Of a stretch of DNA of 32,000 nucleotides, positions 6,380 through 32,000 are shown in pieces. The position numbers and the translations under genes are program-made. Positions within the stretch are counted from its first letter, which is position 1, and each line of letters starts with the position of its first letter. The notes under the pieces were generated by a model, which made no database searches, was not told the DNA's origin, and saw nothing but the letters and a program-made list of their open reading frames with translations. This DNA comes from Bellilinea caldifistulae (GTDB taxonomy: Bacteria; Chloroflexota; Anaerolineae; Anaerolineales; Anaerolineaceae): NCBI RefSeq assembly GCF_001306055.1, contig NZ_LGHJ01000019.1:30001-62000 (forward strand). The letters run 5' to 3'.

Positions 6380-6400
6380 TTAGAAAACCTCCTGCAGATT

Positions 6401-6428: not shown

Positions 6429-6441
6429 TTTCGCCATCAGG

Positions 6442-6512: not shown

Positions 6513-6527
6513 AATCTAACGAGCCAC

Positions 6528-6556
6528 ATTCTATCACTTTTCCATATGGCTGTCTA
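6528..6556 (-). promoter_or_regulatory. Sigma70-like promoter for tRNA-Gln
   Basis: On the - strand, TAGACA (complement of 6551-6556), a 17-nt spacer, then TAGAAT (complement of 6528-6533). The -10 ends 15 nt upstream of the mature tRNA 5' end. It sits just after the gltX stop. Confidence 0.5.
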
Positions 6557-6559
6557 GGC

Positions 6560-9213: not shown

Positions 9214-9226
9214 TTATTTTCTTAAA

Positions 9227-10299: not shown

Positions 10300-10308
10300 T
10301 CTCCTCCC

Positions 10309-11043: not shown

Positions 11044-11108
11044 AACTATCCATTATAGCAAAGCCTGCCCAGCCATGTGGCTGAAAAGAGCAGCCGCTTT
11101 TGGGGGGT

Positions 11109-13193: not shown

Positions 13194-13201
13194 TTTGGAG
13201 A

Positions 13202-13702: not shown

Positions 13703-13708
13703 CTCAAA

Positions 13709-14557: not shown

Positions 14558-14602
14558 GATATGCCCAGCATTTTAACACAACGGCCAAGCGACCAGGGTT
14601 GG

Positions 14603-15748: not shown

Positions 15749-15777
15749 TTGACATTCTTCGCCCAACTGCATATAAT
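15749..15777 (+). promoter_or_regulatory. Consensus sigma70 promoter of tRNA-Gly
   Basis: TTGACA (15749-15754), exactly 17 nt of spacer, then TATAAT (15772-15777). The tRNA 5' end is 12 nt downstream of the -10. Confidence 0.8.
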
Positions 15778-15789
15778 CCCAATCACAAT

Positions 15790-15861
15790 GCGGGTGTAGT
15801 TCAGTGGTAGAACGTTTGCTTCCCAAGCAAAATGTCGTGGGTTCGAGTCCCATCACCCGCT
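15790..15861 (+). tRNA. tRNA-Gly (anticodon CCC)
   Basis: Hand-folded: GCGGGTG TA GTTC AGTGGTA GAAC G TTTGC TTCCCAA GCAAA ATGTC GTGGG TTCGAGT CCCAT CACCCGC T. All stems pair. It has U33 and anticodon CCC. CCA is not encoded. Confidence 0.92.
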
Positions 15862-15884
15862 CTAAGACAGGCACACTTATTTTC

Positions 15885-15929
15885 AACCGACTGGCAGGAT
15901 CCTTGCACCAGTCGGTTTGTTTTATTTTT
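15885..15929 (+). terminator. Rho-independent terminator after tRNA-Gly
   Basis: A 10-bp stem, AACCGACTGG (15885-15894) with CCAGTCGGTT (15908-15917), has a 13-nt loop and is followed by TGTTTTATTTTT. Confidence 0.85.
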
Positions 15930-16055: not shown

Positions 16056-16448
16056 ATGACCGCGGGAAAGAGTATCCTTTACATCGAAGACAATTTTGAC
16101 AATCGAATGCTGGTTCGGCGTCTGCTGGAACATGAGGGCTTTTTGGTCTTGGAAGCCGAAAACGCCCATCAAGCTTTGGAGTTACTTCAAACTCGCATTC
16201 CGGATTTGATTCTGATGGACATCAATATGCCGGAAATTGACGGCTACACCCTCACCCGGCAAATCAAGACAGCTCCTCAAACCAGCCATGTGCCCGTAAT
16301 TGCCCTGACCGCCAATGTCATGCGCGGCGACAAGGAACGTACCTTGCGGGCGGGTTGCGACGGGTACATCGAAAAGCCCATTGACATTGACACTTTCATT
16401 GATCAGGTCAATCAATTTCTGAACGGTAATCGAGTCAAGCAGCTATGA
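16056..16448 (+). CDS. Stand-alone response-regulator receiver protein (CheY-like), RR1
   Basis: It carries the acidic pocket (IEDN), phospho-acceptor Asp (DLILMDINMPEIDG), T (ALTAN) and K (IEKPI), and has no output domain. I prefer ATG 16056 (AAGGAG at 16039-16044) over the track's GTG 16044, which overlaps the SD. Confidence 0.88.
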   Translation: MTAGKSILYIEDNFDNRMLVRRLLEHEGFLVLEAENAHQALELLQTRIPDLILMDINMPEIDGYTLTRQIKTAPQTSHVPVIALTANVMRGDKERTLRAGCDGYIEKPIDIDTFIDQVNQFLNGNRVKQL

Positions 16449-16906
16449 ACACAACCTCAAATCAAAATCCTCAAAAACCAGCCCCGGCCGCCGGTACCAC
16501 TGGCAGCCTGCTCAAAGATGTTACGGTTCTGGTGGTAGAAGATAATGTGTCCAACTTCGTGTTGATTGCCCGCATGCTAGGATTTTTAGGGATTCACTGC
16601 GAGTGGAAAACCTCCGGTTATGAAGTAGTCGAATTTGCGGATACGCTCCCCCGTTTGGATCTGATTTTGATGGATATTCGCCTTCCTTATGAGGATGGCT
16701 ATTCGGCTTTTAACAAAATCCGCCAATCTGAGCGATTCAAGAATGTTCCGGTAGTAGCCGTCACCGCTGAAGCCAGTCTGGAGCAAATGAACAAAGCCCG
16801 CAAAGCCGGCTTTGACGGCTTTTTGGGTAAACCACTCGATCCCGATCGCTTCCCCGATCAAATCCAGCGCATTCTGGCAGGTGAACCCGTCTGGGAAATG
16901 GATTAA
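16445..16906 (+). CDS. Stand-alone response-regulator receiver protein, RR2
   Basis: 153 aa. A ~25-aa unstructured N-terminus is followed by a complete receiver (VVEDN, DLILMDIRLPYEDG, AVTAEA, LGKPL). Its ATGA overlaps the RR1 stop. Confidence 0.88.
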   Translation: MNTTSNQNPQKPAPAAGTTGSLLKDVTVLVVEDNVSNFVLIARMLGFLGIHCEWKTSGYEVVEFADTLPRLDLILMDIRLPYEDGYSAFNKIRQSERFKNVPVVAVTAEASLEQMNKARKAGFDGFLGKPLDPDRFPDQIQRILAGEPVWEMD

Positions 16907-16916: not shown

Positions 16917-19900
16917 ATGACTCTTCCATCTACCCCGTCCCGAAAATCTTCTCCCACTTTCTTCAAGCGAATCAGGCATAAGGCTCTATTATTTTTGTTC
17001 TTGCTGGCAGTTTTCCCCTTACTGCTCTCGGTTGCTTCCACCGTCCTTGCAGTATCTCTGCTGCCACCTGCAACAAGCGGACAAACTCCATGGATTTTGA
17101 TTCTTTCACAACCGGTATTTTGGGCAGGATCAGGGATCAGCCTGTTAATCGCTGCAGGGATCACCTGGCTGTTCATTCAGGTGTTCATCGTGCCGATAGA
17201 AAATCTCTCCACCCAAACCGAAAAACTCGCCAATGGGGATTGGAGTCAAAAGTTCACTGTTCAAAGCAAAGATGAAATTGGGAAACTGGCCTACGCTCTG
17301 AATCTGCTTCGCAATGAACTGGGACGAATGTACCGAAAAATTGAGTTACAGGCAATTTCTCAAAAAGCCGACCCATCTTCCGGGCTGGTTGAGTCTGGTT
17401 TAGACCTCACCGTTGAAGAGGACCGCCAGGAAAACTTCGACAGTGAGTTTTCCTTCGAACCGATTGAATTTGACCGCCAAGAGGAAAACCCGTTATATCA
17501 CGCCGCTCAAAAAATCAATCACGCCGGTGAAGAATCTCAGATTAATCAAATCCTCGACGAAACTCTATCCAAAATCGATTATGTTTCGGCATTCTTTGAC
17601 ATCTACCCCAATAATTTGCGTCTGATGCATCTCCTTGACCGGCAGGTGCGGTATACCGAAAAGTCCCTGAAAGGGACCGCCATTCAGATTGAAAACCCGC
17701 AAACTTTATTTTCGGGCAAAGATTGTATTATCCTCGAACAAAAAGAGGAAATCAGTGAACTTGTCAATCTGTTCACCCTCTTTGAAAATCGCAATTGCAA
17801 TTCCATCGCAATTTTCCCTTTACTGGTCAATCAACGGGTCGTCAGGCTGTTTGTCATTGGTTCGCGTAAGCCAACCCCGCTTTCGGCGGTGAACCTACAA
17901 CCCTTTATCCATTTATCTCATACCATCAGTGCGGTACTGGAAAAACTTGGCAGCATCCGCAGCCTTCGCAGTCAAATGTCTGCTTATGAGACCCTGACCA
18001 GCATCAGTCAGGCGATCAGCAATGAATTCAGCCTGCAACCTCTTTATCAGTTGGTGCACCAAAAGGTCAGTGAACAAATTGGTGCGGATTTATCTTTTTC
18101 CTTCGCTATTTACGATCAAGCCAATCAAATTATCCAGTTCCCCTATCACTACGAAGACGGGAAAGTGACTTCCATTCCACCCTTCCCGTTGGGTGAGGGT
18201 CTGACCTCCTATATCATTCAGAATCGAAAATCGCTGCTGCTGCCCTTAAAGTTTGAACCGAAAGACTTACCCGCCAGCTGGAACGCTTATAAATACATGT
18301 ATGCGGTTTCGGATGTTGAACGAGATGCCATGCGTTTAGGCGCAAAAATTGTTGGTAAGCCTGCCAAATCCTGGCTGGGTGTACCGCTGATGGTGGGCGG
18401 CCAGGTTCTTGGTGCAATCATCGTACAGGATACCCAAAAAGAAGAACGCTTTTCGGAAAAAGACCTGATTTTACTGGAGACAATTGCCCCCCAAATCGCC
18501 ATTTCCATCCGCAATGCACAGCTGGTTGAGAACATGACCTCAACTTTGCAAGCCTACGATCAGGAACACACCCTGCTGAATGCCTTGCTGGAAAACGTGC
18601 CGGAGAAAATTTACTTCAAAGATCAGGAAGGGCGTTATCTGCGGGTTTCCAATTCCTTTATTGCCAGCCTTGGATACTCCTCAGCCAGTGAGATTACCGG
18701 CTACACTGATGAAGAATTAATCCCCGGCGAGGCTGGCAACCTCCGCCATCAGCATGACATGCGAGTCATTTCCTCTGGTATTCCTGTTGTCGGCGAAATG
18801 GTCGAATATCATGCGGAAAATGGAGAAACGCTCTGGGAGCTAGTTTCCCGTGTTCCGCTATTTTCAAATGCGGACCCCGCCAATAAAAACCCCTATGCTT
18901 TGCTGGTGATTTCTCAGGATATCACCGAGTTGAAGAGAACCGAAAACCTGAGCAACCGGCAGGCCCAACAGCTGCTCACCGCTGCCGAGATTGCCCGCGA
19001 TGTGGCTTCCTCCCTGCAGACCGAACAAGTGCTGGTCAATGCGACTAACCTGATTCGCGAACGATTTGGTTATTACCACGCTTCGGTTTTCCTTGTGGAT
19101 CCGACAGGAAAATACGCGGTGTTACATGAAGCCTCCGGCGAGATCGGGCAGAAGATGAAAGCTGCCGGACACCGTCTGGCTGTTGGCTCTCGTTCACTGG
19201 TTGGGCAGGCCGTTGCCAAAGCCGAAACGGTTGTGTCCAACAATACCCGCCAAAATCCCAATTATTACCCCAACCCCCTCCTTCCAGATACCCATTCGGA
19301 ATTGGTTGTGCCTTTGAAAACCGCAAACCGTGTGATTGGTGCGCTGGATGTGCAAAGTGACCGGGTTAATGCCTTTACAACCGAGGACATTCACACGCTG
19401 GAAATCCTGGCAGATCAGCTGGCAATGGCATTGGAAAATGCCCATCTATACGCCCATGCGCAGGAAAATCTGGTCAAACATCGCTTACTCCATCAGATGA
19501 CCACCGCCGCTTCTACCAGCACGAACCTCAGTGAAGCGATCCAGAGAACGGTTTATAACCTGCGAACATCTCTGGGCGAGGAACGTGTAGCCTTTTATCT
19601 CGCTGATCAGAGCGGCAACCTGTTCCTGCATACCGCCATCGGATTTGAGGGATTGGAAATCAATCAGATCAACATCCAGAACAGCAAACATCTGCTGGCA
19701 ATTTCCGCCCGAGACCGCTATCCGGTGCGGGTTGGTCGTCTATCGTCGGGTGAGACCAATGTGACCATCCACCCGGAAACGCAATCTGCGCTGGCTGTTC
19801 CGATTCTTTTCTCGGATGAATTGCTTGGCGTTCTCACTGTGGAATCCGAGCAGGTGGATCGCTTCGACGAAAACGATCAGGAAATCATTGGCGCACTTGG

Positions 19901-20192
19901 CGACGCACTGGGTGCGATCCTCACCAATGCCCGTCTGGTGGATCAAATTCGCCAACAAGTTGAACGACAGCGGATGCTTTATGAAATCACCAGTAAAATT
20001 CGCCGTTCGGTTGATATCGAAACCATTCTTCGTACCTCGGTAAATGAAATTAGCAGGGCAGTCGGTGCACGCAAAGCCCATATCCAGATTAATCCAGGTG
20101 TTCAAAGTTCATCACGTGAGAGCCATGCTGCTTTAACATCCATCCCCGATGAACACAACAATGGTCACCACATTGAGGATAACGGCAAATGA
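16917..20192 (+). CDS. Membrane HAMP - GAF-like - GAF - PAS - GAF - GAF protein with no recognisable output domain (GAF-1)
   Basis: ATG 16917 has AAGGA 7 nt upstream. The track's 16812 start overlaps RR2 in another frame. There are two TM helices, then HAMP (~17180-17330, KDEIGKLAYALNLL). Next come a GAF-like region (~17500-17950), GAF (~17960-18540), PAS (~18560-18940, LLENVPEKIYFKDQEGRYLRVSN) and the signature GAF (18981-19451). A further GAF follows (~19480-19960), then a terminal helix/strand fragment. It has no HisKA, GGDEF, EAL, HD-GYP, cyclase or HTH motifs. Confidence 0.85.
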   Translation: MTLPSTPSRKSSPTFFKRIRHKALLFLFLLAVFPLLLSVASTVLAVSLLPPATSGQTPWILILSQPVFWAGSGISLLIAAGITWLFIQVFIVPIENLSTQTEKLANGDWSQKFTVQSKDEIGKLAYALNLLRNELGRMYRKIELQAISQKADPSSGLVESGLDLTVEEDRQENFDSEFSFEPIEFDRQEENPLYHAAQKINHAGEESQINQILDETLSKIDYVSAFFDIYPNNLRLMHLLDRQVRYTEKSLKGTAIQIENPQTLFSGKDCIILEQKEEISELVNLFTLFENRNCNSIAIFPLLVNQRVVRLFVIGSRKPTPLSAVNLQPFIHLSHTISAVLEKLGSIRSLRSQMSAYETLTSISQAISNEFSLQPLYQLVHQKVSEQIGADLSFSFAIYDQANQIIQFPYHYEDGKVTSIPPFPLGEGLTSYIIQNRKSLLLPLKFEPKDLPASWNAYKYMYAVSDVERDAMRLGAKIVGKPAKSWLGVPLMVGGQVLGAIIVQDTQKEERFSEKDLILLETIAPQIAISIRNAQLVENMTSTLQAYDQEHTLLNALLENVPEKIYFKDQEGRYLRVSNSFIASLGYSSASEITGYTDEELIPGEAGNLRHQHDMRVISSGIPVVGEMVEYHAENGETLWELVSRVPLFSNADPANKNPYALLVISQDITELKRTENLSNRQAQQLLTAAEIARDVASSLQTEQVLVNATNLIRERFGYYHASVFLVDPTGKYAVLHEASGEIGQKMKAAGHRLAVGSRSLVGQAVAKAETVVSNNTRQNPNYYPNPLLPDTHSELVVPLKTANRVIGALDVQSDRVNAFTTEDIHTLEILADQLAMALENAHLYAHAQENLVKHRLLHQMTTAASTSTNLSEAIQRTVYNLRTSLGEERVAFYLADQSGNLFLHTAIGFEGLEINQINIQNSKHLLAISARDRYPVRVGRLSSGETNVTIHPETQSALAVPILFSDELLGVLTVESEQVDRFDENDQEIIGALGDALGAILTNARLVDQIRQQVERQRMLYEITSKIRRSVDIETILRTSVNEISRAVGARKAHIQINPGVQSSSRESHAALTSIPDEHNNGHHIEDNGK

Positions 20193-21856
20193 ACTTCATC
20201 CGCCAAATTAATCCTGCCCATACCCCTCCTCACATCTCCCGTTTAGGGGAGCTAGCCACCTGGCGCGAGCGTATCTTACAGACTACACTCCTCCTGTTTG
20301 CGCTGGCAGGCACAGTGATTTACTACCTTGCCATACAACGGGCAATCCAATATCAAGACCGCACCTCAATTTACCTGTACACCGGGGCATTGCTGGTAGC
20401 GCTTGCTTTACCCCTCCTCAGAAAATTATCCTTCAACCTGCGTACCCTGGCAATTCTGGTCGTCCTGTATGGTTTGGCCGTTCAAAATCTGGTGGTTTAC
20501 GGCGTAACACGGAACGCGGTTGCCTATGTATTGGCCATTGTTTTCATCGCTGGACTTTTATGGGGGGTACGGGCTGGTGTTTTTGCCATCCTTTTCACCT
20601 TTGCCACGGTGGTGGGGATGGGCTACGGGATGAACTACGGGGGCATGAACCAGCCATTGCAGGAAACTCTATTGAATTCAATGAGTTTCGAAAACTGGGT
20701 CAATGTGGCAATTCATTTCAGCATCGTGGGCGGTTTCATTTTGCTGTCCATCTACACTATCTTGAACGGTTTACAAAGTTCATTGTTGCAACAACGAACC
20801 TTGACAATGCAATTGAACGCTGCCCGTCTGAACCTCGAAAAAAATGTGGAAGAACGAACCACAACCCTGAAGCGCCGTTTGAACCAGATACGTACCGCAG
20901 CAGAAATTGCCAGAGCAGTCAACACCTTTCTCGATCCCGAAACACTTCTCCAACAATCGGTTGACCTGATTCAAAAAGAATTTGATCTGTATTACGCCGG
21001 TATTTTTTTAGTGGATGAGCGCGGCGAATTTGCCGTCCTCAAAGCAGGCACAGGCGAAGCCGGCCGCCAGATGATTGCCGCCGGTCACAAACTGGCGGTT
21101 GGCGGAAACTCGATGATTGGCTGGGCAACAGCACGCAAAGAACCCAAAATTGCACTGGATACCGGGGTTGAAGCCGTCCGTTTCAACAATCCTTACTTAC
21201 CCCTAACCCGTTCTGAAATGGCACTACCCATTATCAGCCGCGGTGTCTGCTTAGGTGCCCTGACCATTCAATCTACCCAACCCGAAGCCTTCGATCAAGA
21301 TGATATTCGCATTTTGATGGGTATTGCCGATTCGCTCGCGACCGCCCTGGAAAATGCCCGCCTGTTTCAGGAAACCCAACAAAATCTTGAAGAGATCCGC
21401 GCACTCAACCGGGCTTACCTCATGCAATCCTGGGAAGACGCGGTTGCCATGCACGGCAAACTTGAGTACACCTACCAAAATCCCTCCGCCATTCAAGATG
21501 GAAAAGCATCTAACCAAATCCACATCCCCTTGACCCTTCGCGATCAGGCAATTGGTAACCTGACTCTTGAATTAGGCGATAAGAGCTTGACACCCGAAGA
21601 AATGGAATTTGTGGATGGGGTAATCAATCAAACCGCCATTGCTCTGGAAAATGCCCGCTTGATTCAGGAAACCCAACGTCGGGCAATGGAAGAGCAGCGC
21701 CTCAGTGAAATGACCGCTCAATTTTCGCGCGCAAATACCGTTGACCAGATTCTCAAAGCGGCTCTCCTTGAAATCGGTCACCTTCCCAATGTGGCTGAGG
21801 TGAGCGTCCAGTTAATTCCGCCGGTTGAAGATCAAATGGAGGAAGTTGAAGGATGA
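20189..21856 (+). CDS. Polytopic membrane domain - S-helix - GAF - conserved tail protein, no output domain (GAF-2)
   Basis: 555 aa. Its ATGA overlaps GAF-1, with GAGGA 9 nt upstream. A ~210-aa multi-TM N-terminus is followed by a coiled coil with an ERT motif (20852-20860). Then come the signature GAF (20897-21367) and the tail module (21368-21856). Confidence 0.85.
   Translation: MNFIRQINPAHTPPHISRLGELATWRERILQTTLLLFALAGTVIYYLAIQRAIQYQDRTSIYLYTGALLVALALPLLRKLSFNLRTLAILVVLYGLAVQNLVVYGVTRNAVAYVLAIVFIAGLLWGVRAGVFAILFTFATVVGMGYGMNYGGMNQPLQETLLNSMSFENWVNVAIHFSIVGGFILLSIYTILNGLQSSLLQQRTLTMQLNAARLNLEKNVEERTTTLKRRLNQIRTAAEIARAVNTFLDPETLLQQSVDLIQKEFDLYYAGIFLVDERGEFAVLKAGTGEAGRQMIAAGHKLAVGGNSMIGWATARKEPKIALDTGVEAVRFNNPYLPLTRSEMALPIISRGVCLGALTIQSTQPEAFDQDDIRILMGIADSLATALENARLFQETQQNLEEIRALNRAYLMQSWEDAVAMHGKLEYTYQNPSAIQDGKASNQIHIPLTLRDQAIGNLTLELGDKSLTPEEMEFVDGVINQTAIALENARLIQETQRRAMEEQRLSEMTAQFSRANTVDQILKAALLEIGHLPNVAEVSVQLIPPVEDQMEEVEG
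21344..21380 (+). repeat. 37-nt intragenic direct repeat, copy A (end of the signature GAF in GAF-2)
   Basis: GCCCTGGAAAATGCCCGCCTGTTTCAGGAAACCCAAC matches copy B at 34 of 37 positions. It encodes ALENARLFQETQ. Confidence 0.9.
21641..21677 (+). repeat. 37-nt intragenic direct repeat, copy B (end of the half-GAF in the GAF-2 tail)
   Basis: GCTCTGGAAAATGCCCGCTTGATTCAGGAAACCCAAC encodes ALENARLIQETQ. It lies 297 nt (99 codons) downstream of copy A, in the same frame. Confidence 0.9.
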
Positions 21857-23559
21857 GTCAAAATCTCCCCACCCGCCCCTACTCCTCTTTATCATCCGCA
21901 TTCAGCCGCGGAGGTGAAGTGGATGACCTGAGTGGCGCTCTCCAGCCCATTTTGAATCTCACCAGCGTACTCAGTCTGGCCGCCTACCTGTGGATTGCCT
22001 TTCAGAACGCCCTCACCCAACAGCCCCTCCTTCCACTGGCACTAGCTCCGCTGCTCGCACTCCTCCTGCTGGTTACTTTTCGTCAAAGCTTTTCAACCTC
22101 TTTACGGACTGGCTTCCTGATAATCTTTTATTTGCTGGTTGGTTTCGCCTTATTTTTACTTGGAGAGATGCAAAGCATTGGACTTCTCCTTTTCCTGACC
22201 GCGGTTCAAGTTGCCCTTATATTCTGGAATGGAAAAGCGGGCATGACCACTTTCTTGGTTAGTCTGGCACTCATTCTGACGGCGGGTATTTCTCTCCATT
22301 TTGGGTTGCTGAAACCATTTGGTCTGGGAACTCAATCCCTTGAACTCGTACCTTTCATCGGATTGATTGCGGCTTTCGTCCTTTCCAATTGGGTTTTGGC
22401 CATGATTTCCGGACACCTTCTCAAGGTTTACAACAGGGCAGCTTCTTCTGAAAAAGAACTCTCCCAAATTCTGGATGAAGAAAGAAAAAACCTGGAAGCG
22501 CGCATCGAAGAACGCACCCGGCTACTTACCCGGCAAACCAGCCTGATGGAAACCGCCGGTGAGATTGCCCACCAAATCTCAATGGAAACCAGTCAGGAAA
22601 ATCTTTTCCGTAATACCATTCAACTGATTCGCGACCGTTTGGGATACTATCACGCTGGCATTTTCCTCATGGACGATACAGATGAGTATGCCGTACTGGT
22701 TTCTGCGCTGGGAGAAGCGGGTGAGAAGATGCTCGCCCAAGGTCACCGCCTTAAAAAAGGCGAGGAAGGTATTGTCGGAAACGTGGTTGCCCGTGGAGAG
22801 GCGCGCATTGCTTTGGACGTCGGCAAGGATGCAGTCCACTTCAAGAATCCGCTCTTGCCTTACACCCGCTCTGAAATTGCCCTTCCCATCAAGATTGGAG
22901 ATCGAGTGCTCGGCGCATTAGATATTCAATCTACCGAGCCGGAAGCGTTCTCACAGGTGGATATTCAATCGCTTCAAATTATTGCCAATCAACTGGCAGT
23001 GGCATTGGAACGCATCCGACTGATTGACCAGCTTCAACAAACTGTAGCCGATTTGGAAAGCGGGTACCGCACCGAAACCCGCAAGTCCTGGCGGATGTAC
23101 ATCCGCAGTAGTCGTAAAACCCGCGGTTTTCGCTATGATCCTGATCGTAAGCAAGTTGAACCAATTCCCGTTGTGAAAAATCCTTCACAATCTTTATCGG
23201 ATGCCCAAACGGTACAGGTGCCGCTGCACAGCCGAGGTGAAGTGATCGGGGTGCTCAATATTAAGTTCAAAGGCGGGCAGCCGTCTCCTGAAATTCAGCG
23301 GCTTCTTCACACAACTGCAGAACGGTTGGGTTCAGCTCTGGAAACCGCCCGTTTGTTGGAGGAATTACAACTCCGTGCCGAGAGAGAACATCTGGTAGGC
23401 GATCTTGCCACACAGGTACGCTCCAGTACCGATTTCGAACAAATTCTTAAGACAACCGCCCAGCAAATCAGACAAAAACTGGGTTTACGCGAAGTAACTG
23501 TCCAGATTCTTCCTTCGCAAGAGATACAGCATGGGGATTATCCACTGGAGGTTTCATGA
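21853..23559 (+). CDS. Polytopic membrane domain - S-helix - GAF - conserved tail protein, no output domain (GAF-3)
   Basis: 568 aa. Its ATGA overlaps GAF-2, with GGAGGA upstream. The plan matches GAF-2: ERT at 22510-22518, signature GAF at 22555-23025, tail at 23026-23559. Confidence 0.85.
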   Translation: MSQNLPTRPYSSLSSAFSRGGEVDDLSGALQPILNLTSVLSLAAYLWIAFQNALTQQPLLPLALAPLLALLLLVTFRQSFSTSLRTGFLIIFYLLVGFALFLLGEMQSIGLLLFLTAVQVALIFWNGKAGMTTFLVSLALILTAGISLHFGLLKPFGLGTQSLELVPFIGLIAAFVLSNWVLAMISGHLLKVYNRAASSEKELSQILDEERKNLEARIEERTRLLTRQTSLMETAGEIAHQISMETSQENLFRNTIQLIRDRLGYYHAGIFLMDDTDEYAVLVSALGEAGEKMLAQGHRLKKGEEGIVGNVVARGEARIALDVGKDAVHFKNPLLPYTRSEIALPIKIGDRVLGALDIQSTEPEAFSQVDIQSLQIIANQLAVALERIRLIDQLQQTVADLESGYRTETRKSWRMYIRSSRKTRGFRYDPDRKQVEPIPVVKNPSQSLSDAQTVQVPLHSRGEVIGVLNIKFKGGQPSPEIQRLLHTTAERLGSALETARLLEELQLRAEREHLVGDLATQVRSSTDFEQILKTTAQQIRQKLGLREVTVQILPSQEIQHGDYPLEVS

Positions 23560-26501
23560 ATATCGGATACCAGAGCAATTTGATGAGGATAATCTCGCAA
23601 GAAGGCGTCGAGCCAGCGTATCGCCGTGATCGCTTTGCTGCCGGCGTGGCTCGGCTTGCTGCCATTATTCTTGGAATTACAAGTGTCATCTTCCTGCTAA
23701 CATCCTTCAATCAACCTTACTGGCAAATCTTTACTCTTACATTTTTTAGCGCGGGCGGCTTTCTTGCATCTCTTTTCGCCGCTACTTTTCCTGAGAAAGA
23801 AGCCGCCGAAAAGCGCACCTACCTGCTTGCTCCAACGCTTTCAATAAGTGCCATTGCTTTCAGTGCTCTCATTGTCAATGTCGCTTTGCCTTTGGCAATC
23901 ATCCTCTTTTTGGTATTGACTCTTCTGGTCACCGGTTCCCTTGAAGGTCAACGAAGGGATACCGGTATCTCTCTGGCTTTCTTTTCAGCACTGACGGCTG
24001 TCATCGCCGGCAACTTTTTACCTGTCTCGCAAGTCAGGTTGCCGCAGATTGAATTGTTCATTCCGGTATTGTTGGGCATCTTAATGATGGTTTATATCAT
24101 CTTGTTGATGCTGGAAGTTCTTTCCGCCACATTACGCATCAAACTGCTGACAATTTCACTGGCAATTGCCATTGTCCCATTACTGGTCATCTCGATTATC
24201 AATTCGCGTTTCTTTCAGGATGCTCTGCGTAATCAGACCAATCAAGTCCTTCTTCTTGCAGCCCAGCAGACTGCTTCTAAAGTCGATTCGTTCTTTGAAG
24301 AAAACAAACAATCCATTGCCAGTGAAGCTTCTCTGGCTGTATTTTCGAACTACCTTTCGCTTTCGCCTTTGTACCGCCCTAACAGTACCCAGGAAGTGGC
24401 AGCTACTCTGACCTTGCGTTCGTTATCTTCCCGTCAACAGCGCTTTCTGCGTTCTTATGGTTTGGTTGATGCGGAAGGCAAAGCCGTTCTGGATATTAAT
24501 CCTCTTCAAATCGGGCAAGACGAATCTCAAAACGAGTACTTTACACTCCCGCTCACAACTGGGCAGGTTTATGCCTCACCTGTAATTTTTGACCCGAGAT
24601 CTCGGAATGGATATATCTATTTCTCAAGCCCGGTACGGAATCAACGCCAGCAGGTAATCGGTGTTTTGCGCGCTAAATTTGACGCCCTGATCTTGCAGGA
24701 ATTACTGGAGCAAGAGGTAAATTTGGTGGGCATCCGTTCCTACCCAATCTTGCTCGATGAGAATTATTTGCGTCTGGCCGATACGCTCATTCCCAACAGT
24801 ATTTATAAACTGGTCATGCCGCTGCCTTCGGACGTGATGGGAAAATTGATTCAATCCAATCGTGTTCCGAATTTACCACTTTACGAAATGAGCACCAATG
24901 ATGTTGCCCTCTCGGCAGGTTTGGAAAACTATTTGAACTCCCCCTTCTTTACTGCAGAATTTCACCCGGATGATCCCAGCCATCCTGAAATTGGTGCCAT
25001 CACTCGCTTGAAAACCAACCCGTGGTATGTGGTCTTTGTCCGCGAACAGACTACTTTTGCCGGCTTAGTCGCACGGCAAGGCCGCTTATCCATCTTAATT
25101 TCTACCTTGATTGCTGGGTTGGTGGGGTTAATTGCCAGCGTGGTTTCCGGCTCGTTTAGCCGGCCGATTGTTCGTTTGCAGCAAACTGCAGAGCTGATCT
25201 CCTCCGGTGAGCTGGATGCACAGGCGCAGGTAGAAACCGGTGATGAGATTGGAAAACTGGCTCAGGCATTCAATTTTATGACCAACCAGTTGAAGAACCT
25301 GATCAACACGCTGGAAGACCGGGTTCGAGAGCGAACCCGTGAACTCGCCCAACAAAATGAGGCATTGCTCTACAGGACACGCCAGTTGCAAACCGTTTCG
25401 GATGTAGCCCGCGGTATCGTTTCGACCCAAAAACTGGAAAGTCTGCTGAACCAGCTCACCATCCTGATCAGCGAACGATTTGGGTTTTATCACGTGGGCG
25501 TTTTCTTGTTGGACGAACAGAAGGAATACGCCGTTCTGCGAGCAGCAAACTCAGAAGGCGGTAAACGGATGCTTGCTCGCCAGCACCGGCTCAAGGTCGG
25601 TCAGGTTGGTATTGTGGGTTATGTAACCGGTAGCGGAGAAGCCCGTATCGCCACTGATGTTGGTAAAGACGCAGTCTTCTTCAACAATCCCGATTTACCT
25701 CAAACCCGATCCGAAATGGCACTCCCCCTCAAAGCAAACAACGAGGTGATCGGCGCTCTGGATGTGCAAAGTACAATACCCAACGCCTTCACCCAGGAAG
25801 ACGTTGAATTATTCAGCATCCTGGCTGATCAAATTGCCATCGCCATCCTCAATAACCGGCTCTACACCGAAACCCTGCAAGCGCTGGAGGAATCTCAACG
25901 CGTTCACCGGCTTTACCTGCGTCAGGAATGGAGCAAAGAAGCCGGAGAACGACCGGTAATTGGCTATCGGGCAACACCTCATGGTTTGATTGCATTGGAA
26001 GAGATGCGCGAACAGGAAATTTCCGATGTGCTGCTCTCCGGAGATGTTATCGTCCGCCCGGCAAAGGAAAGTCAACCGGCGGCATTATCGGTTCCGGTCA
26101 GGCTGAGAGGTGAAACCGTTGGGGTGATTCACATTGAAGATGATCAAATTGCCGATCGGGTTTGGAGTGAAGAAGAAATTCGTTCCATTCAGGCAGTTGC
26201 TGATCAGGTTGGGCTGGCTCTGGAAAATGCGCGTTTGCTGGAAAAGACCATCCGTCGCGCTGAGCGCGAGCGCCGCGTTTTGGAAATCACCAGCAAGATC
26301 CGCTCCACAAATGACCCGAACACGATGATCGAGATTGCCATTCAAGAATTGAAACGCACTTTGAATGCCAGCCATGCTCAAGTCATATGGAAAGATACTG
26401 GTGAAGAAACCACACCTCCACAACAGCAGAGCAATGAACCATCCACTCTACAAAAACGGAATAACGGATCAAACGGTTCGAGCAGGAAGGGGCAGGTATG
26501 A
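23556..26501 (+). CDS. Multi-TM - Cache-like extracytoplasmic domain - HAMP - S-helix - GAF - conserved tail protein, no output domain (GAF-4)
   Basis: 981 aa. Its ATGA overlaps GAF-3, with GGAGG 5 nt upstream. About 6 N-terminal TM helices are followed by a ~290-aa Cache-like region (24215-25080, ..GLVDAEGKAVLD..DESQNEYF..GYIYFSSPV..VIGVLRAKF). Then come a TM, HAMP (25158-25300, GDEIGKLAQAFNFM), ERT (25329-25337), the signature GAF (25395-25865) and the tail (25866-26501). Confidence 0.85.
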   Translation: MNIGYQSNLMRIISQEGVEPAYRRDRFAAGVARLAAIILGITSVIFLLTSFNQPYWQIFTLTFFSAGGFLASLFAATFPEKEAAEKRTYLLAPTLSISAIAFSALIVNVALPLAIILFLVLTLLVTGSLEGQRRDTGISLAFFSALTAVIAGNFLPVSQVRLPQIELFIPVLLGILMMVYIILLMLEVLSATLRIKLLTISLAIAIVPLLVISIINSRFFQDALRNQTNQVLLLAAQQTASKVDSFFEENKQSIASEASLAVFSNYLSLSPLYRPNSTQEVAATLTLRSLSSRQQRFLRSYGLVDAEGKAVLDINPLQIGQDESQNEYFTLPLTTGQVYASPVIFDPRSRNGYIYFSSPVRNQRQQVIGVLRAKFDALILQELLEQEVNLVGIRSYPILLDENYLRLADTLIPNSIYKLVMPLPSDVMGKLIQSNRVPNLPLYEMSTNDVALSAGLENYLNSPFFTAEFHPDDPSHPEIGAITRLKTNPWYVVFVREQTTFAGLVARQGRLSILISTLIAGLVGLIASVVSGSFSRPIVRLQQTAELISSGELDAQAQVETGDEIGKLAQAFNFMTNQLKNLINTLEDRVRERTRELAQQNEALLYRTRQLQTVSDVARGIVSTQKLESLLNQLTILISERFGFYHVGVFLLDEQKEYAVLRAANSEGGKRMLARQHRLKVGQVGIVGYVTGSGEARIATDVGKDAVFFNNPDLPQTRSEMALPLKANNEVIGALDVQSTIPNAFTQEDVELFSILADQIAIAILNNRLYTETLQALEESQRVHRLYLRQEWSKEAGERPVIGYRATPHGLIALEEMREQEISDVLLSGDVIVRPAKESQPAALSVPVRLRGETVGVIHIEDDQIADRVWSEEEIRSIQAVADQVGLALENARLLEKTIRRAERERRVLEITSKIRSTNDPNTMIEIAIQELKRTLNASHAQVIWKDTGEETTPPQQQSNEPSTLQKRNNGSNGSSRKGQV

Positions 26502-27280
26502 CTTATTTTATTTCCATCACAAACGAAAAAGGCGGAGTTGCCAAAACGACTACAGCGCTCTCTCTGGGTGCAGCCCTGGTTGAAGCGGGGCGGCAGGTGT
26601 TGCTGGTTGATTTGGACGCTCAGGCCAATCTAACCCTCGCACTGGGAACGGATCCCCTCAACGGACATGCAACCATTCTGAACGCCGTTGCCGATCAATC
26701 TCCCATCCATAAACTATGGCGGGAAACCGGTATTCCGGGTTTATTTTTTATCCCTTCCAATCATGATATGGGCTATAGCGAACGAATTTTGCCCGCCCGT
26801 CCCGAATATGAATTTACCCTGAAAAAGGCGTTTTCCGAAATCTCGCTGCCGTTTGATTATGTAATATTTGACTGTCCCCCCTTTTTGGGTTCCGTGGTGA
26901 TTAATGCCCTGACCGCGTCGCAATTACTCATCATTCCTACGCAGGCAGAGTACTTTTCCATTTATGCCTTGAAAAACATGATGAGTTTAATCCGCCGCAT
27001 TCGCTCGCAAACCAATCCCGATCTCACCTACCGGCTTTTACTCACCATGTTTGATCGCCGCAACCGCATCCATCGAACCCTGAGTGAACAGTTACGTGCA
27101 AGTTTTGGCAATGGTGTGCTGGAAACCGTCATCATGGTGGATACCCGTCTGCGGGAAAGTTCCATTGCCGGTCTGCCGATTATCTACCATGCTCCCAAAA
27201 GCCGTTCTGCTTTGCAATACCGCGAATTAGCCCAGGAGATCCTGCAATATGTCGAAAAAGCAATTGCTCAACCGGCTTGA
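26498..27280 (+). CDS. ParA/MinD-family P-loop ATPase (orphan; no ParB in the window)
   Basis: 260 aa. It has the deviant Walker A (NEKGGVAKTTT), Walker A' (LLVDLDAQANLT) and Walker B (YVIFDCPP). Its ATGA overlaps the GAF-4 stop. Confidence 0.88.
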   Translation: MTYFISITNEKGGVAKTTTALSLGAALVEAGRQVLLVDLDAQANLTLALGTDPLNGHATILNAVADQSPIHKLWRETGIPGLFFIPSNHDMGYSERILPARPEYEFTLKKAFSEISLPFDYVIFDCPPFLGSVVINALTASQLLIIPTQAEYFSIYALKNMMSLIRRIRSQTNPDLTYRLLLTMFDRRNRIHRTLSEQLRASFGNGVLETVIMVDTRLRESSIAGLPIIYHAPKSRSALQYRELAQEILQYVEKAIAQPA

Positions 27281-30200
27281 CCATCTCTTTGCCAACATTA
27301 CGGAAGATGCCGCCGAGCAGATTCCTCCCCCTCCACCCCCACCGACGGTTCTGCCACAATGGAAGTGGGAAACAGACGAAAGCGGCTGCATTATTTTCTG
27401 TGAAGATGCCATAAAGGTTTGCCTGGGTTACTCACCGGATGAGATCATCGGTCAACCCTTATCTTCATTTGGGTTGAGCAGTGAATCGGTTACTGCATTG
27501 CAAAATGCCTTAAATCAGGATGTGTTTCCCATTGATTTGTCCGTCGTATTTCAATCCAAAAGCGGTAACCCTGTACCAGCCCGTCTGACCATCTTCAAAA
27601 AAGGCGCATTAAACGGCGAGAAGGGCGGTTTTCGTGGTTTTACCCAACCCTTGTTAGAGAGCAAGCCGGTAAAACCTCAATCAGAGAATGAGGACATTCC
27701 GAAAACCCAATTTGCCAGCCAGCAAACAACCCCAAGCGCAAGAAAAACGCCAGTCAGGGCTCCGATTCAGCCAAAAGCCCAAAAAGCCGCCCCTCCTTCG
27801 GTCAGACCTCGTTCAAAATCTATTCTTGAAAACCCGGCCATCATCACCGTTCCTTTGAAAAAGAGGCAACAAGAAATCGGCATTCTTGAAATCATGGCCG
27901 ATGGCGTACAACGCCGTTGGAGCGAAGAAGAATTACTACTGGTACAGGAAGTTGCCAATCAACTTGGCCTTGCAATCGAAAATGCAGAATTGTATGCTGC
28001 TGTTCAACAGGAACTCAACGAGAGAGTTCGCGCCGAACAAGAGATTTTACGCCGCAACAAAGATCTCGCTGCTCTGAATGAGATTGGTCAGCAAATCTCG
28101 CGTCTGACCGATAAAGATCAGATCATTGCCACCTTACAGCAAGCGCTTGTGCAACTGTTGAACTGCCGCAATTTGACCATTGCGATGCTGGATTCCGATC
28201 AGCAAACCCTGACTTTTCCCGTGCATACCGTTGATTCAAACTCTCAACCCTTACCCCCCAGGCCACTTGGAGATGACCTGATCAGTTATGTCGTTCACAG
28301 CCGGGAGGTTTTACGCATCAATCGGGATGTGGCAAACGCCTTATCTGCCAGAAAAATTATCCCCGATCAACCCATTCCTGCTGCTCTTCTTGCCGTCCCA
28401 ATGGTCACCGCCGAAAAGGTTATGGGTGTCATTTACCTTCAAGAGTTTGAGCAGGGTGCTGGTTTTTCAGATATTCAAGCAGACTTGCTTTCCACAATTG
28501 CCTCTCAGGTAGCCATTGCTCTGGCAAACGCCAATCTCTTCCAGGAAGTTACCACCGCCCTGCAAGCCATCGAAAAACGTGAACGCTATCAGGCTAACGT
28601 GGCTCAGGCAGTTGCCACATTGACTGAAAGCGGCGTTCGCGGTATTCCCGCCATGTTGGGCTTCCTTGGCGAAGCAGCCCAATGCGATTACATCTACTTT
28701 GCCAGTGCACGGGAAGACGAACAGGGCTTGCACTGGATCGTTACCGACCATTGGATTGCCCCTCAAATCCGCCCCGGTTCTGATCTGGTCGTACGGCAGC
28801 CGCTTTCTGCCGCTTTGTTCCCTAACTGGGCCTCAGCGTTGAAAGAGAAAGGCTGGTTTTCCGGTCAGCCTGAAGATTTCGAAGGGCGTGAACGCGAGTT
28901 CCTCCGTCAGCGCGGTATTCACTCCATCCTTTTACTGGCTGTACCGGGTAATCGCGATATTCCCAGTTTTATCGCATTCGAACAAAGGACTGCCCGAGCC
29001 TGGAAAAATGATGAAATCGGCGTGTTACAGGTGGCGGCAGATGCACTGGCGAACACGTTCGTCCGCCAAGACCTGCTGGAACAATTGCGATCCTCGCTGG
29101 ATGAGACCGAAACGCTGTATAAAATCAGCCATAATCTGGCTTTGGCGGGTGATTACCACGAGATGGTGCGCGCCATTGCCGGCGGGATCACCGATGAAAA
29201 GGTGAATCGCATTGTATTGGTTCTGTTTGAACAATCCGATCCATTAAGTACCCCACTCCTGCGAATTGCTGCAACGTGGCACTCAGGAAGAGGTGCCCAT
29301 CCCCCGTTGATTGGTACCGAATTGGATTACGCCACCTACAATCCGCTGGTTTCAATTGAAACCCCCGCTTTTTATAACGATATCTATGATTTAGGAATTT
29401 TGCCCGCCGCCCGTTCGGCACTGGAAGAGTTAAATGTACGCTCGATTGCGGTTTTACCCCTTTGGGCTGCTCGCAAACAATTAGGTGCTTTACTCTTTCT
29501 TTCAGAAGGGTTGCATTACTTTACGATACGTGAGATGCGCACCTTCCCGCCACTCGTGGATCAGATGGCTACCGCCATCGAGAACATGCGCCTGTTCGAA
29601 CAAACTCAGGCAGCCCTTGCCGAAACCGAACTTTATTACCGGATCAGCAGCGGCATTGCGCAAGCAGGTGATGCCAACGACTTGGTTGATCTGGTAATGA
29701 CCGAAATTCTGCCAGCCAACGCAGAACGGGTGTCCATCATCCAGATGTTCAACGACCCAAACGGTGTGCCGCTGGAATTTGAGGTCGTTGCCAGCACCTC
29801 GGTCAGCGGTAACACGGAACTGGCTAATATTCGCCAATCCATCAATCATTTACCGATTCTCAAGGAATTGCGGGAAGAACCGATTGTATTGGATAATCTT
29901 GAAAATAGCCGGTTGGATTCCCTTTCTAAACAAACCCTGAAACAGATGGGGGTTGCTTCGGGTATTTTTGTGCCATTGTTCAGCGCCGGAAAAATTGTTG
30001 GTATTCTGGCAGCCACTTCCAGTCAACCCGCCAGTTACGACATGGAAGAGGTACGTGTGCTGAATGTGGCGAGCAGTGGTGTGGCAGTAGCGTTAGAAAG
30101 ACAACGCCTTCTCAAAGAAGCCCAGCGCCGCGCCCTTGAACTTCAAGCTGCTGCCGAAATTGCCCGCGATACCACGAGCGTCCTTTCTCAAGATGAATTG

Positions 30201-32000
30201 CTCAACCGGATCGTCAATCTCCTTCGCGAGCGATTCGGTTTTTACCACACTGCCATCTTTTTGGTCAACGACGAAGGCACCCACGCCATTATTCAGCAAG
30301 CCAGCGGAATGGGCGCCCAGGAAGTCATGCGAAGCAATCAAAAGATTGCGGTCGGCTCCCGCTCGATTATTGGCAAAGTAACCGATACTGGCAGTCCGGT
30401 GCTGGTCAATAATGTTGCTGAAAGCCCTATCTACCTTCCCAATCCGCACCTGCCCGAAACACGCTCGGAGTTGGGCATTCCCCTGCGTATTGCTGACCGT
30501 ATCATCGGCGCCTTGGATATTCAATCCGAACGTCCGAATGCCTTTCAGGAAGACGATCTGGGAGTGTTCCAGATTCTGGCTGATCAGATTGCAGTGGCCA
30601 TTGAAAATGCCCGCGCCTACGAGCTGGCTCAAAAAGCCTATCAGGAAATGCGCGAAGTTGACCGCTTGAAGTCTCAATTCCTCGCCAATATGAGCCATGA
30701 ATTGCGAACACCCCTCAATTCGATTATTGGCTTTTCGCGGGTCATCCTCAAAGGGATTGATGGCCCGATCAACGACCTCCAGAGACAGGATCTCACCTCG
30801 ATCTACAACTCCGGTCAGCACTTGCTCGGCCTGATCAATGATGTCCTTGATCTTTCCAAAATCGAAGCCGGAAAAATGGAGCTGCAATTCGAGGAAGTGA
30901 ACATTGCTGATTTGGTCAATTCTGTCATGTCCACGGCTGTGGGGTTGGTAAAAGACAAGCCCATCAAACTCAATCATCAAGTGGAACCTGATTTACCGGT
31001 TGTAATTGCCGATAACACCCGCATCCGTCAGGTTTTGCTCAACTTTATCTCCAATGCGGCAAAATTCACCGATGCCGGCTCCATCACCGTGGAAGCCAGG
31101 AAATCTCTCAGCCCTGATAACAAACCTGAGGTCATGGTCATTGTTACCGACACAGGCCAGGGAATTGACGAGAAAGGACGGGAAAAATTATTCCTGCCGT
31201 TCTCTCAAGTGGATGATTCTCCCACCCGCAAAACTGGTGGAACCGGCCTGGGTCTGTCCATTTCCCGCTCCTTTATTGAACTACATGGCGGTCGGATTGG
31301 CTTGTTATGGAGTGAAGTGGGTAAAGGCAGCGCCTTCTACTTCACCCTGCCGGTTCAGCAGCCAGCCAAACAGACCAGCGAACTTAAATCGGATGAGATT
31401 TTATCCAAAACCGAAAAAGTGATTCTGGCCATTGACGATGACCCGCAAGTCATAAAACTATACGAACGCTTTTTACAAACCAGTGGTTACAAAGTCGTTC
31501 CGCTCACTCAGCCAAAACTTGCCGTTGAAAAAGCCAAATCTCTCAAACCTTTTGCAATCACCCTGGATATTATGATGCCTGAGGTAGATGGTTGGCAGGT
31601 CATTCACGCCTTGAAGAATGATCCCCAAACTAAAGATATTCCGGTCATTATTTGCAGCATTCTGGAAGAGGAAGAAAAAGGATTTAGTCTGGGCGCAGCC
31701 GATTATCTGGTTAAACCTTTCCTTCAGGAAGATCTGGTCAATGCGGTTTACCGCCTGAACCGCCAAAACCGAATTCATCGCATTCTGGTTGTGGATGATT
31801 CGCTGGAAGATCAGCGTCTGATTCAGAAAACACTTGCGGAGCAAAAGAATTTTGAGATCTTCGCCGCATTCGATGGTGAAAAAGCCTTGCAGATGATTCA
31901 CAATATCAAACCAGATGCGGTCATTTTGGATCTCTTCATGCCGGGATTGGATGGTTTTCAGTTATTGGAGAAAATTCGAACCGCTCCCGAATACCGTAAC
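27249..32000 (+). CDS. Soluble PAS / multi-GAF hybrid sensor histidine kinase with two C-terminal receiver domains (3' end outside the window)
   Basis: This gene is NOT in the supplied ORF track. I translated the frame of nt 27249 by hand to nt 32000 and found no stop. An in-frame TAG lies at 27228-27230, AGGAG at 27234-27238, and the ATG at 27249. Domains: PAS-like (~27350-27620), half-GAF (27843-27995), 4 GAF/GAF-like modules (~28080-30110) and the signature GAF (30150-30620). The kinase core has the H-box MSHELRTPLNSI (His codon 30696-30698), N-box VLLNFISNAAKFT, G1 DTGQGI and G2 GGTGLGLSIS (to ~31360). REC1 has Asp codon 31566-31568 and REC2 has Asp codon 31929-31931. I saw no TM segment. 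Confidence 0.9.
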   Translation, partial: MSKKQLLNRLDHLFANITEDAAEQIPPPPPPPTVLPQWKWETDESGCIIFCEDAIKVCLGYSPDEIIGQPLSSFGLSSESVTALQNALNQDVFPIDLSVVFQSKSGNPVPARLTIFKKGALNGEKGGFRGFTQPLLESKPVKPQSENEDIPKTQFASQQTTPSARKTPVRAPIQPKAQKAAPPSVRPRSKSILENPAIITVPLKKRQQEIGILEIMADGVQRRWSEEELLLVQEVANQLGLAIENAELYAAVQQELNERVRAEQEILRRNKDLAALNEIGQQISRLTDKDQIIATLQQALVQLLNCRNLTIAMLDSDQQTLTFPVHTVDSNSQPLPPRPLGDDLISYVVHSREVLRINRDVANALSARKIIPDQPIPAALLAVPMVTAEKVMGVIYLQEFEQGAGFSDIQADLLSTIASQVAIALANANLFQEVTTALQAIEKRERYQANVAQAVATLTESGVRGIPAMLGFLGEAAQCDYIYFASAREDEQGLHWIVTDHWIAPQIRPGSDLVVRQPLSAALFPNWASALKEKGWFSGQPEDFEGREREFLRQRGIHSILLLAVPGNRDIPSFIAFEQRTARAWKNDEIGVLQVAADALANTFVRQDLLEQLRSSLDETETLYKISHNLALAGDYHEMVRAIAGGITDEKVNRIVLVLFEQSDPLSTPLLRIAATWHSGRGAHPPLIGTELDYATYNPLVSIETPAFYNDIYDLGILPAARSALEELNVRSIAVLPLWAARKQLGALLFLSEGLHYFTIREMRTFPPLVDQMATAIENMRLFEQTQAALAETELYYRISSGIAQAGDANDLVDLVMTEILPANAERVSIIQMFNDPNGVPLEFEVVASTSVSGNTELANIRQSINHLPILKELREEPIVLDNLENSRLDSLSKQTLKQMGVASGIFVPLFSAGKIVGILAATSSQPASYDMEEVRVLNVASSGVAVALERQRLLKEAQRRALELQAAAEIARDTTSVLSQDELLNRIVNLLRERFGFYHTAIFLVNDEGTHAIIQQASGMGAQEVMRSNQKIAVGSRSIIGKVTDTGSPVLVNNVAESPIYLPNPHLPETRSELGIPLRIADRIIGALDIQSERPNAFQEDDLGVFQILADQIAVAIENARAYELAQKAYQEMREVDRLKSQFLANMSHELRTPLNSIIGFSRVILKGIDGPINDLQRQDLTSIYNSGQHLLGLINDVLDLSKIEAGKMELQFEEVNIADLVNSVMSTAVGLVKDKPIKLNHQVEPDLPVVIADNTRIRQVLLNFISNAAKFTDAGSITVEARKSLSPDNKPEVMVIVTDTGQGIDEKGREKLFLPFSQVDDSPTRKTGGTGLGLSISRSFIELHGGRIGLLWSEVGKGSAFYFTLPVQQPAKQTSELKSDEILSKTEKVILAIDDDPQVIKLYERFLQTSGYKVVPLTQPKLAVEKAKSLKPFAITLDIMMPEVDGWQVIHALKNDPQTKDIPVIICSILEEEEKGFSLGAADYLVKPFLQEDLVNAVYRLNRQNRIHRILVVDDSLEDQRLIQKTLAEQKNFEIFAAFDGEKALQMIHNIKPDAVILDLFMPGLDGFQLLEKIRTAPEYRN

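Follow-up and report, generated by a model that had tools for sequence, protein, structure and literature searches.

A length-conserved GAF subtype in a multi-sensor operon of Bellilinea caldifistulae: member of a large Anaerolineae subfamily and probable in-line signal relay

A stretch of 32,000 nucleotides of the genome of Bellilinea caldifistulae (contig NZ_LGHJ01000019.1, positions 30,001 to 62,000; in the following called the window) contains an operon for five large signalling proteins, designated P1 to P5 in the order of their genes, of which P1–P4 are membrane sensors and P5 is a soluble hybrid histidine kinase. Each of the five possesses one GAF domain of the same subtype and of exactly the same length, which raises the question of what keeps this domain so uniform in proteins with different domain architectures. 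In a preliminary description of the window, a length-locked module occurring once per protein was thought to look like a common surface for interaction or heterodimerisation, rather than like five independent ligand sensors.

The observation itself proved to be accurate. The five segments of 471 nucleotides (Table 1) are in frame and encode 157 residues each; MAFFT introduced zero gaps into their alignment, and in all ten BLASTP pairs there were 0 gap openings, with E values from 8e-39 to 2e-58. Pairwise protein identities were 36–52%, ungapped, with 27 invariant columns, which include all residues that had been named as invariant (G69, G75, N98-P99, L101-P102, T104, S106-E107, P111, G120-A-L122, Q125-S126, A131-F132 and D136). 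In order to avoid circularity, a family hidden Markov model (HMM) was based on 249 copies from other genomes, to the exclusion of the window and of Bellilinea. It yielded 202–233 bits for the five copies and at most 45 bits for all remaining GAF-like modules of P1–P5; in BLASTP, the best of these other modules reached 27% identity to the subtype over 153 residues, with 5 gaps. Thus there is indeed one copy per large protein in the window, and the other GAF-like modules of the locus are much more divergent, as had been stated. No sixth copy was found elsewhere in the window, and two protein searches contained no other B. caldifistulae protein among their top 120 matches each, which is not equivalent to a genome count.

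The subtype is a very large, uncurated subfamily of the Pfam family GAF_2 and is typical of Anaerolineae (Chloroflexota). Whole-protein GAF_2 scores in P1–P5 were 64–201 bits (cut-off 28.6), the best stretch being the subtype copy. When 1.84 billion cluster representatives (50%-identity clusters) were searched with a profile, 13,604 proteins were returned at E ≤ 1e-30, a number which is based on whole-protein scores and is hence an upper bound for strict members. With a nine-residue pattern, at least 599 stretches, confirmed by tblastn, were found in species-representative genomes; all counts for related loci given below rest on the best 80 of these matches. The 80 loci were all from Anaerolineae, Thermoflexus or other Chloroflexota, and named protein matches belonged to the same phylum. 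They contained 306 strong copies; 237 of the 254 full-length copies (93%) had exactly 157 residues, and in a more diverse sample 420 of 517 copies were 157 or 158 residues long. Among 259 distinct copies, Y32, G75, N98, L101, P102, T104, E107, P111, G120, Q125, S126 and F132 were conserved to at least 95%. Since fixed length and signature are thus found family-wide in other genomes, they are traits of the subfamily and not of the locus. Confinement of the subtype to such loci, for which an HMM search had been proposed, was not observed; the subtype is abundant and occurs also in unrelated loci.

One copy per protein is true in the window and is no rule of the family. In the related loci, 23 open reading frames (ORFs) with two copies and 3 ORFs with three were detected; P1 orthologues of about 1300 residues have usually two, and in a Thermoflexus protein of 1934 residues three copies are fused into one kinase. 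Three or four copies of about 200 bits each are present in the Chloroflexota proteins P0180 and P0123, and an array of about nine weaker copies in protein P0121. Soluble kinases of about 700 residues (2603 matches at E ≤ 1e-20) carry two tandem copies with 195–223 bits, and one of these kinases is located in an unrelated locus. Length lock and single occurrence, which had been taken as signs of an interaction surface, are therefore both generic, multi-copy chains being common. Another type of locus with the subtype (GAFsub), L081 (5679–10136), encodes a REC-GAFsub-HATPase protein, a REC protein, a GAFsub-GAFsub-HATPase-REC kinase and an FHA-GAF-guanylate-cyclase; it adjoins a gene for a multi-GAF protein of 2508 residues.

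The spacing between the module and the helices next to it is strict as well. The S-helix is a helix of ~40 residues between two signalling domains, with ERT in its central heptad (PMC1592074). This signature is found in P2, P3 and P4 and is absent from P1 (KRT) and P5 (no ERT). Copies in P2, P3 and P4 start 12, 12 and 19 residues past ERT, i.e., directly after the S-helix input, as was described before, and in an AlphaFold2 (AF2) model of full-length P3 the helix is unbroken from the membrane to the GAF domain. Of 127 cases, 126 had a spacing of 5 (32 cases), 12 (69) or 19 (25) residues between the T of ERT and the module start. Short linkers between consecutive copies had 12 (69 cases), 19 (17), 26 (4), 33 (1) or 40 (3) residues, so that 94 of 96 fit the same series. 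No other module separates the subtype copy from the dimerisation and histidine phosphotransfer (DHp) helix in any of the operon kinases; the module ended 25 residues before the phospho-accepting His in 22 of 22 kinases, and the previous statement that the P5 copy adjoins HisKA on its N-terminal side agrees with this value. Altogether, a rule of 7n+5 is obeyed in about 98% of the linkers. Heptad-periodic linkers are known to mark continuous coiled coils in sensor kinases and tandem modules (PMC6798134), including the S-helix (PMC1592074), and from the 7n+5 register the subtype is here interpreted as a relay built in line into a dimeric spine of helices.

According to this reading, to which a probability of roughly 0.6 is assigned, the subtype would be an in-line signal-transmission unit of an ancient GAF_2 subfamily, located on a continuous helical spine. 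The N-terminal helix of the module would prolong the upstream S-helix or coiled coil, and the C-terminal helix would run into the next coiled coil, i.e., that of a following sensor module or, in a kinase, the DHp helix; the GAF body would hang on the continuous spine, which is probably a parallel dimer. Constant length and signature could result from a compact fold, from a conserved internal pocket of the type found in free methionine-R-sulfoxide reductase (fRMsr), PtsP and NifA, and from linkers in heptad register. Each membrane sensor would use one copy as first cytoplasmic relay after the S-helix, and the soluble hybrid kinase one copy as last relay ahead of its catalytic core. The simplest reading is that module geometry, and not the matching of partners, keeps the subtype uniform. 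Several points weigh against it. The evidence for a spine does not separate homodimers from heterodimers; the four sensors are without output domain, so that an in-line relay needs an additional, unspecified step of partner binding; the pocket was assigned from sequence homology to fRMsr and not from coordinates; and the family size given above is an upper bound.

In the upstream ERT, the heptad-periodic linkers, the fixed distance to the His residue and the serial arrangement of modules, these proteins resemble S-helix and coiled-coil kinases such as the LOV kinase YF1 and phytochrome kinases. They differ from such kinases in the unusual strictness of the 7n+5 rule, in the repetition of one GAF subtype up to ~9 times, and in that the rule holds also in proteins whose spine does not end in an effector. 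The GAF subtype itself is ordinary, its fixed length being explained by known principles of coiled-coil sensors; the strict register over hundreds of natural copies provides a clean data set on register in multi-module sensor kinases.

The fold of the module was predicted from an alignment of 125 sequences. The AF2 model of the P3 module, with a predicted local distance difference test (pLDDT) value of 96, is a canonical GAF domain, which is entered by a long N-terminal helix (S-helix into GAF alpha1) and left by a helix of ~50 residues. Its order of helices (H) and strands (E), H-H-E-E-H-E-H-E-loop-E-E-H, fits the GAF fold, i.e., a six-stranded antiparallel sheet with the terminal helices on one side and short helices or a loop on the other. 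Foldseek returned 426 PDB matches at E ≤ 0.001, and the top 50 were GAF domains or GAF-containing proteins. Nearest were fRMsr (3mmh), the GAF domain of PtsP (3trc, 3ci6), NifA/Nlh GAFs (Nlh2) and the cAMP-bound GAF of Lcd1; for GAFs of the fRMsr/PtsP/NifA type, E was 1e-10, the target-normalised TM-score 0.81–0.88 and the root mean square deviation 1.8–2.7. The best matches, 3mmh, 3trc and 3ci6, had target-normalised TM-scores of 0.83–0.88. A PDB search by sequence was led by the same fRMsr/PtsP/Nlh-type proteins.

For mapping of the pocket, the subtype was aligned to fRMsr with HMMER. The residues of fRMsr with substrate-binding or catalytic roles, including the motif H[I/V]xCD of the catalytic Cys, were taken from the literature; the substrate, a free amino acid, is bound by Trp66, Tyr70, Glu132, Asp149 and Asp151 in yeast numbering (bioRxiv 10.1101/2021.02.26.433065). 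In the subtype, H33 aligns to Trp66, F37 to Tyr70, the loop N98-P-x-L-P-x-T104 to the catalytic-Cys loop, E107 (98% conserved) to Glu132, D123 (four of the five window copies) to Asp149, and Q125 (96% conserved) to Asp151, with Gln instead of the second Asp. Judging from this alignment, the conserved residues would be located around the pocket and not on an exposed face or on the helices. The position of the invariant set argues for a common ligand or a structural core, and against an interaction surface made up of these residues. The part of the earlier proposal which stands is that five sensors for different ligands are unlikely, in view of one subtype with the same pocket residues; the argument for an interaction surface from length and copy number does not, and the conserved residues point to a common pocket.

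A tentative possibility is one small cytoplasmic ligand for all copies, by which sensors and kinase would be gated together; such a common ligand would be compatible with an in-line relay. It would be in keeping with the aligned fRMsr positions, with the kind of structures which are nearest, and with the gene for a threonine synthase (ThrC)-like pyridoxal phosphate (PLP) enzyme of the PALP type with a receiver domain, which follows the kinase gene in every related locus reaching that far; the product of this REC-regulated enzyme at the operon end is a speculative candidate for the ligand. On the other hand, the role of the pocket residues could be purely structural, as a hydrogen-bonded core. 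Moreover, two of the pocket residues differ in the P2 copy (Y33 and T123 in place of the H and D of the family), and the beta4-beta5 loop of the P1 and P5 copies differs from that of the P2–P4 copies, so that the pockets may not be identical. Position 118 is a Cys in the P2 copy only, among the five.

Better known functions of GAF domains were considered and rejected. An fRMsr enzyme is excluded by the absence of the catalytic and the resolving Cys, no invariant Cys being present in the five copies or in the consensus. Cyclic-nucleotide-binding GAFs of the phosphodiesterase/cyclase type are characterized by the NKFDE motif; of this, only F132-x3-D136 is present in the subtype, D136 is followed by I, V or L and not by E, and there is no upstream N-K. 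A GAF of phytochromes or cyanobacteriochromes is not compatible with the lack of a conserved bilin-binding Cys, and phytochromes were only distant fold matches. With the GAFs of fRMsr, PtsP and NifA the subtype shares the fold and acidic or polar residues at the substrate-binding strand positions. It is distinguished from all three by an identity of only 20–26% and by its setting in large proteins of several domains, where long helices flank it on both sides, instead of a stand-alone or N-terminal position, and from fRMsr also by the missing Cys residues and the invariant N-P-x-L-P-x-T in the Cys loop.

A trivial explanation for the likeness of the five copies would be recent tandem duplication or gene conversion in the locus, without functional meaning. 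In its favour, the five genes lie side by side in the same direction, and species differ in having 1 to 6 sensor genes, so duplications do occur. However, the DNA identity between the window copies is only 49–56%, and positional orthologues in other genera resemble each copy more closely (P1 53–59%, P2 54–64%, P3 47–53%, P4 73–76% and P5 56–59%; overall 47–76%) than its paralogues in the window do (36–52%). As orthologues are more alike than paralogues, the five copies are ancient paralogues without gene conversion. Identity within loci is not above that between loci, the values being 44.2% for paralogues of the same locus vs 42.6% for non-orthologous copies of different loci. Recent duplication or conversion is refuted at this locus by the orthologue identities and the low DNA identity, and its probability is negligible. 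Across genera, REC2, the second of the two small response regulators of the operon, is 77–85% identical, REC1 about 55–67%, and the N-terminal parts of the sensors 27–40%.

If the in-line relay is accepted, the question arises of how the sensors reach an output. P1–P4 possess no recognisable output domain; HisKA, HATPase_c and Response_reg were all absent in a Pfam scan. Such sensors act very probably via protein-protein contact, with the kinase as the obvious target, and since four output-less membrane sensors adjoin one soluble hybrid kinase in the operon, some physical coupling between them is plausible. The contact could be made through the shared GAF domain and spine, or through the C-terminal tails of the sensors.

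In the first case, the shared GAF domain would be the surface for mixed dimers or oligomers of P1–P4 with P5, formed by GAF-GAF contacts or mixed coiled coils. An operon with output-less sensors and a kinase having exactly one DHp-adjacent copy, in about 80 species, would suit such an arrangement, as would the ATGA junction overlaps, which suggest coupled translation, and the fusion of a sensor part with the kinase, with 2–3 copies per protein, in Thermoflexus and in locus L023. There is also a precedent in plants, where the ethylene receptor OsERS2 uses its GAF domain to bind and inhibit the kinase MHZ1/OsHK1 (PMC6981129). Ethylene receptors are, like P1–P4, paralogous membrane receptors with one GAF domain after the transmembrane (TM) input, which in their case contacts a separate hybrid kinase; unlike P1–P4 they are eukaryotic and keep a kinase-like domain, and the kinship in sequence is limited to the GAF fold. 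Mixed dimers of this kind appear nevertheless rather unlikely. Length lock and signature are present also where no partner is needed (tandem arrays, two-copy kinases, unrelated loci), P1 orthologues have often two copies, and the invariant residues are at pocket positions and not on the helices. A membrane chain and a soluble chain of 1634 residues in one parallel coiled coil would leave the other modules unpaired. Co-adaptation within genomes, which is a weak proxy for heteromerisation, gave no signal, as can be seen from the two identity values given above, and the most deviating columns were outside alpha1 and alpha5.

The second case concerns the tails. The C-termini of P1–P4 are alike, consisting of a short, four-stranded mini-GAF and then a helix-helix-strand tail which resembles the start of a GAF domain; 228 of 277 subtype-bearing ORFs of the related loci end within 40 residues past this mini-GAF/tail module. 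In the AF2 monomer of full-length P3 (pLDDT 82), the last conserved strand of the tail was not placed. P5 contains an orphan half-GAF with beta5-beta6-alpha5 only (residues ~196–250, about 27834–27998), which follows a PAS domain and a disordered linker rich in Pro, Ala and Lys, and the same is found in many P5 orthologues. As an idea, the sensor tail might complement the half-GAF of P5 in trans, which would be a candidate docking mode.

The gene order of the operon is widely conserved. The arrangement REC1-REC2-[1–6 subtype proteins without kinase domain]-ParA-like-[kinase with one subtype copy]-[ThrC-like/REC] was found in essentially all 80 loci, from about 80 species, as judged wherever the fetched DNA extends far enough. 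REC1 was present in nearly all of them, and the ParA-like gene was always directly 5' of the kinase gene. The system may have its enzymatic output in the ThrC-like/REC protein. In L050 (Thermoflexus japonica, 8741–14542), REC1-REC2 precede a single protein in which dCache, HAMP, three subtype copies, HisKA, HATPase and two REC domains are combined; in L023 (8846–12943), sensor part and kinase core are fused, and only REC2 precedes. No separate sensor or ParA gene was detected in the fetched DNA of these two loci, the proteins of which are the fused counterpart of the split system.

In chemoreceptor arrays, many paralogues of methyl-accepting chemotaxis proteins are combined with one CheA, and some operons contain a ParA-like positioning ATPase. 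The present operon resembles them in its variable number of sensor paralogues, which have differing inputs and a cytoplasmic module of conserved length, and in its one kinase, its single-domain REC proteins and its ParA-like ATPase; the shared module is here a GAF domain and not a helical hairpin. A chemotaxis-like system was rejected, as none of MCPsignal, CheA, CheW, CheR and CheB was detected by Pfam in the 18 window proteins. More generally, one could think of a receptor-array-like machine, where 1–6 output-less sensors (with MASE11, TM bundle, dCache-HAMP or HAMP-PAS input) plug into the kinase, positioned by the ParA-like protein and with the ThrC-like enzyme as output; contact could be by the shared GAF domain or coiled coil, or by complementation of tail and half-GAF, and the ThrC-like product may feed back on the pocket. 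Such a machine is at present a doubtful proposition. If the sensors dock on the kinase, a new way of funnelling many inputs into one phosphorelay would be at hand. As a multi-sensor variant of two-component systems in a poorly studied filamentous phylum, situated beside cell-shape and division genes, the operon is more interesting than the GAF subtype.

The locus is at about 2.468–2.490 Mb of DF967971.1 (genome record), and P3 is 100% identical to a B. caldifistulae protein. The operon is on the + strand and tightly packed, with the gene order REC1, REC2, P1, P2, P3, P4, ParA/MinD-like ATPase and P5 (Table 1); its first gene lies 3' of a tRNA-Gly gene. The start of P1 was taken from the genome gene call and not from the first TTG. 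Start and stop codons overlap by 4 nucleotides (ATGA) at five junctions (16445, 20189, 21853, 23556 and 26498), and the ParA-like gene overlaps the P5 gene by 32 nucleotides (27249–27280), which suggests translational coupling along the whole operon; no convincing terminator was found inside it. P5 comprises a PAS domain, the orphan half-GAF, four divergent GAFs, the subtype GAF, HisKA (72 bits), HATPase_c (90 bits) and two REC domains, the latter detected as two Response_reg stretches; with HisKA and its H-box SHELRTP, HATPase_c and C-terminal receivers it is a hybrid histidine kinase. Just past the window end, the genome record shows the gene for the ThrC-like PLP enzyme with a C-terminal receiver domain (locus L083, 20322–21707; in the relative L059, 11977–13710); its score with PRK08197 was 248 bits, which is below the cut-off of 303. 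An NCBIfam search of P1–P4 gave sub-threshold partial matches only and no curated family, and in a literature search no paper was found on the operon, on MASE11-GAF sensors or on ThrC-REC fusions.

Table 1. Positions in the window of the operon genes, the subtype GAF copies and further features
Feature	Position	Strand	Basis
REC1, 130 residues, single-domain response regulator, operon gene 1	16056..16448	+	Pfam Response_reg 104 bits; gene call
REC2, single-domain response regulator	16445..16906	+	Pfam Response_reg
P1, 1091 residues: 2 TM, HAMP, divergent GAFs, PAS, subtype GAF, GAF, tail	16917..20192	+	Pfam; gene call
Subtype GAF copy of P1 (HAMP-GAF-PAS-GAFsub-GAF-tail)	18981..19451	+	157 codons; family HMM 208.9 bits
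C-terminal helix-helix-strand tail of P1	19983-20189	+	alignment
P2, 555 residues: MASE11, S-helix, subtype GAF, mini-GAF, tail	20189..21856	+	Pfam MASE11 75 bits and GAF_2; C-terminal alignment
S-helix ERT signature of P2	20852..20860	+	translation
Subtype GAF copy of P2 (MASE11 membrane sensor)	20897..21367	+	157 codons; family HMM 213.7 bits
C-terminal helix-helix-strand tail of P2	21686-21853	+	alignment
P3, 568 residues: TM bundle, S-helix, subtype GAF, mini-GAF, tail	21853..23559	+	Pfam; AF2 full-length
S-helix ERT signature of P3	22510-22518	+	translation
Subtype GAF copy of P3 (multi-TM sensor)	22555..23025	+	157 codons; family HMM 215.1 bits
C-terminal helix-helix-strand tail of P3	23380..23556	+	alignment
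P4, 981 residues: dCache_1, HAMP, S-helix, subtype GAF, mini-GAF, tail	23556..26501	+	Pfam
S-helix ERT signature of P4	25329-25337	+	translation
Subtype GAF copy of P4 (dCache-HAMP sensor)	25395..25865	+	157 codons; family HMM 233.2 bits
C-terminal helix-helix-strand tail of P4	26265-26498	+	alignment
ParA/MinD-like P-loop ATPase	26498..27280	+	Pfam AAA_31 159 bits, CbiA
P5, soluble hybrid histidine kinase, 1634 residues in the genome	27249..32000, cut by window end	+	Pfam; gene call
Subtype GAF copy of P5 (hybrid kinase), last module before DHp	30150..30620	+	157 codons; family HMM 201.9 bits
Phospho-accepting His codon of P5 (H-box SHELRTP)	30696..30698	+	translation; Pfam HisKA 72 bits

Neighbouring genes: The tRNA-Gly(CCC) gene (15790–15862) is located between mreB and REC1; it is preceded by a perfect match to a TTGACA-17-TATAAT promoter (15749–15777) and followed on its 3' side by a hairpin with a T-run (about 15870–15915). 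A cell-shape and division cluster with mreB, mreC, an ORF of 166 residues without Pfam match, and the genes for PBP2, minC, minD and rodA extends from 8086 to 15664 on the - strand, divergent from the GAF operon; mreB adjoins the operon also in L001, L003, L004, L005, L012, L015, L022 and L038. Adjacent genes for a GlnRS-like protein and GluRS were found at 4694–8068 on the - strand, with a tRNA-Gln gene (6440–6512) between them.

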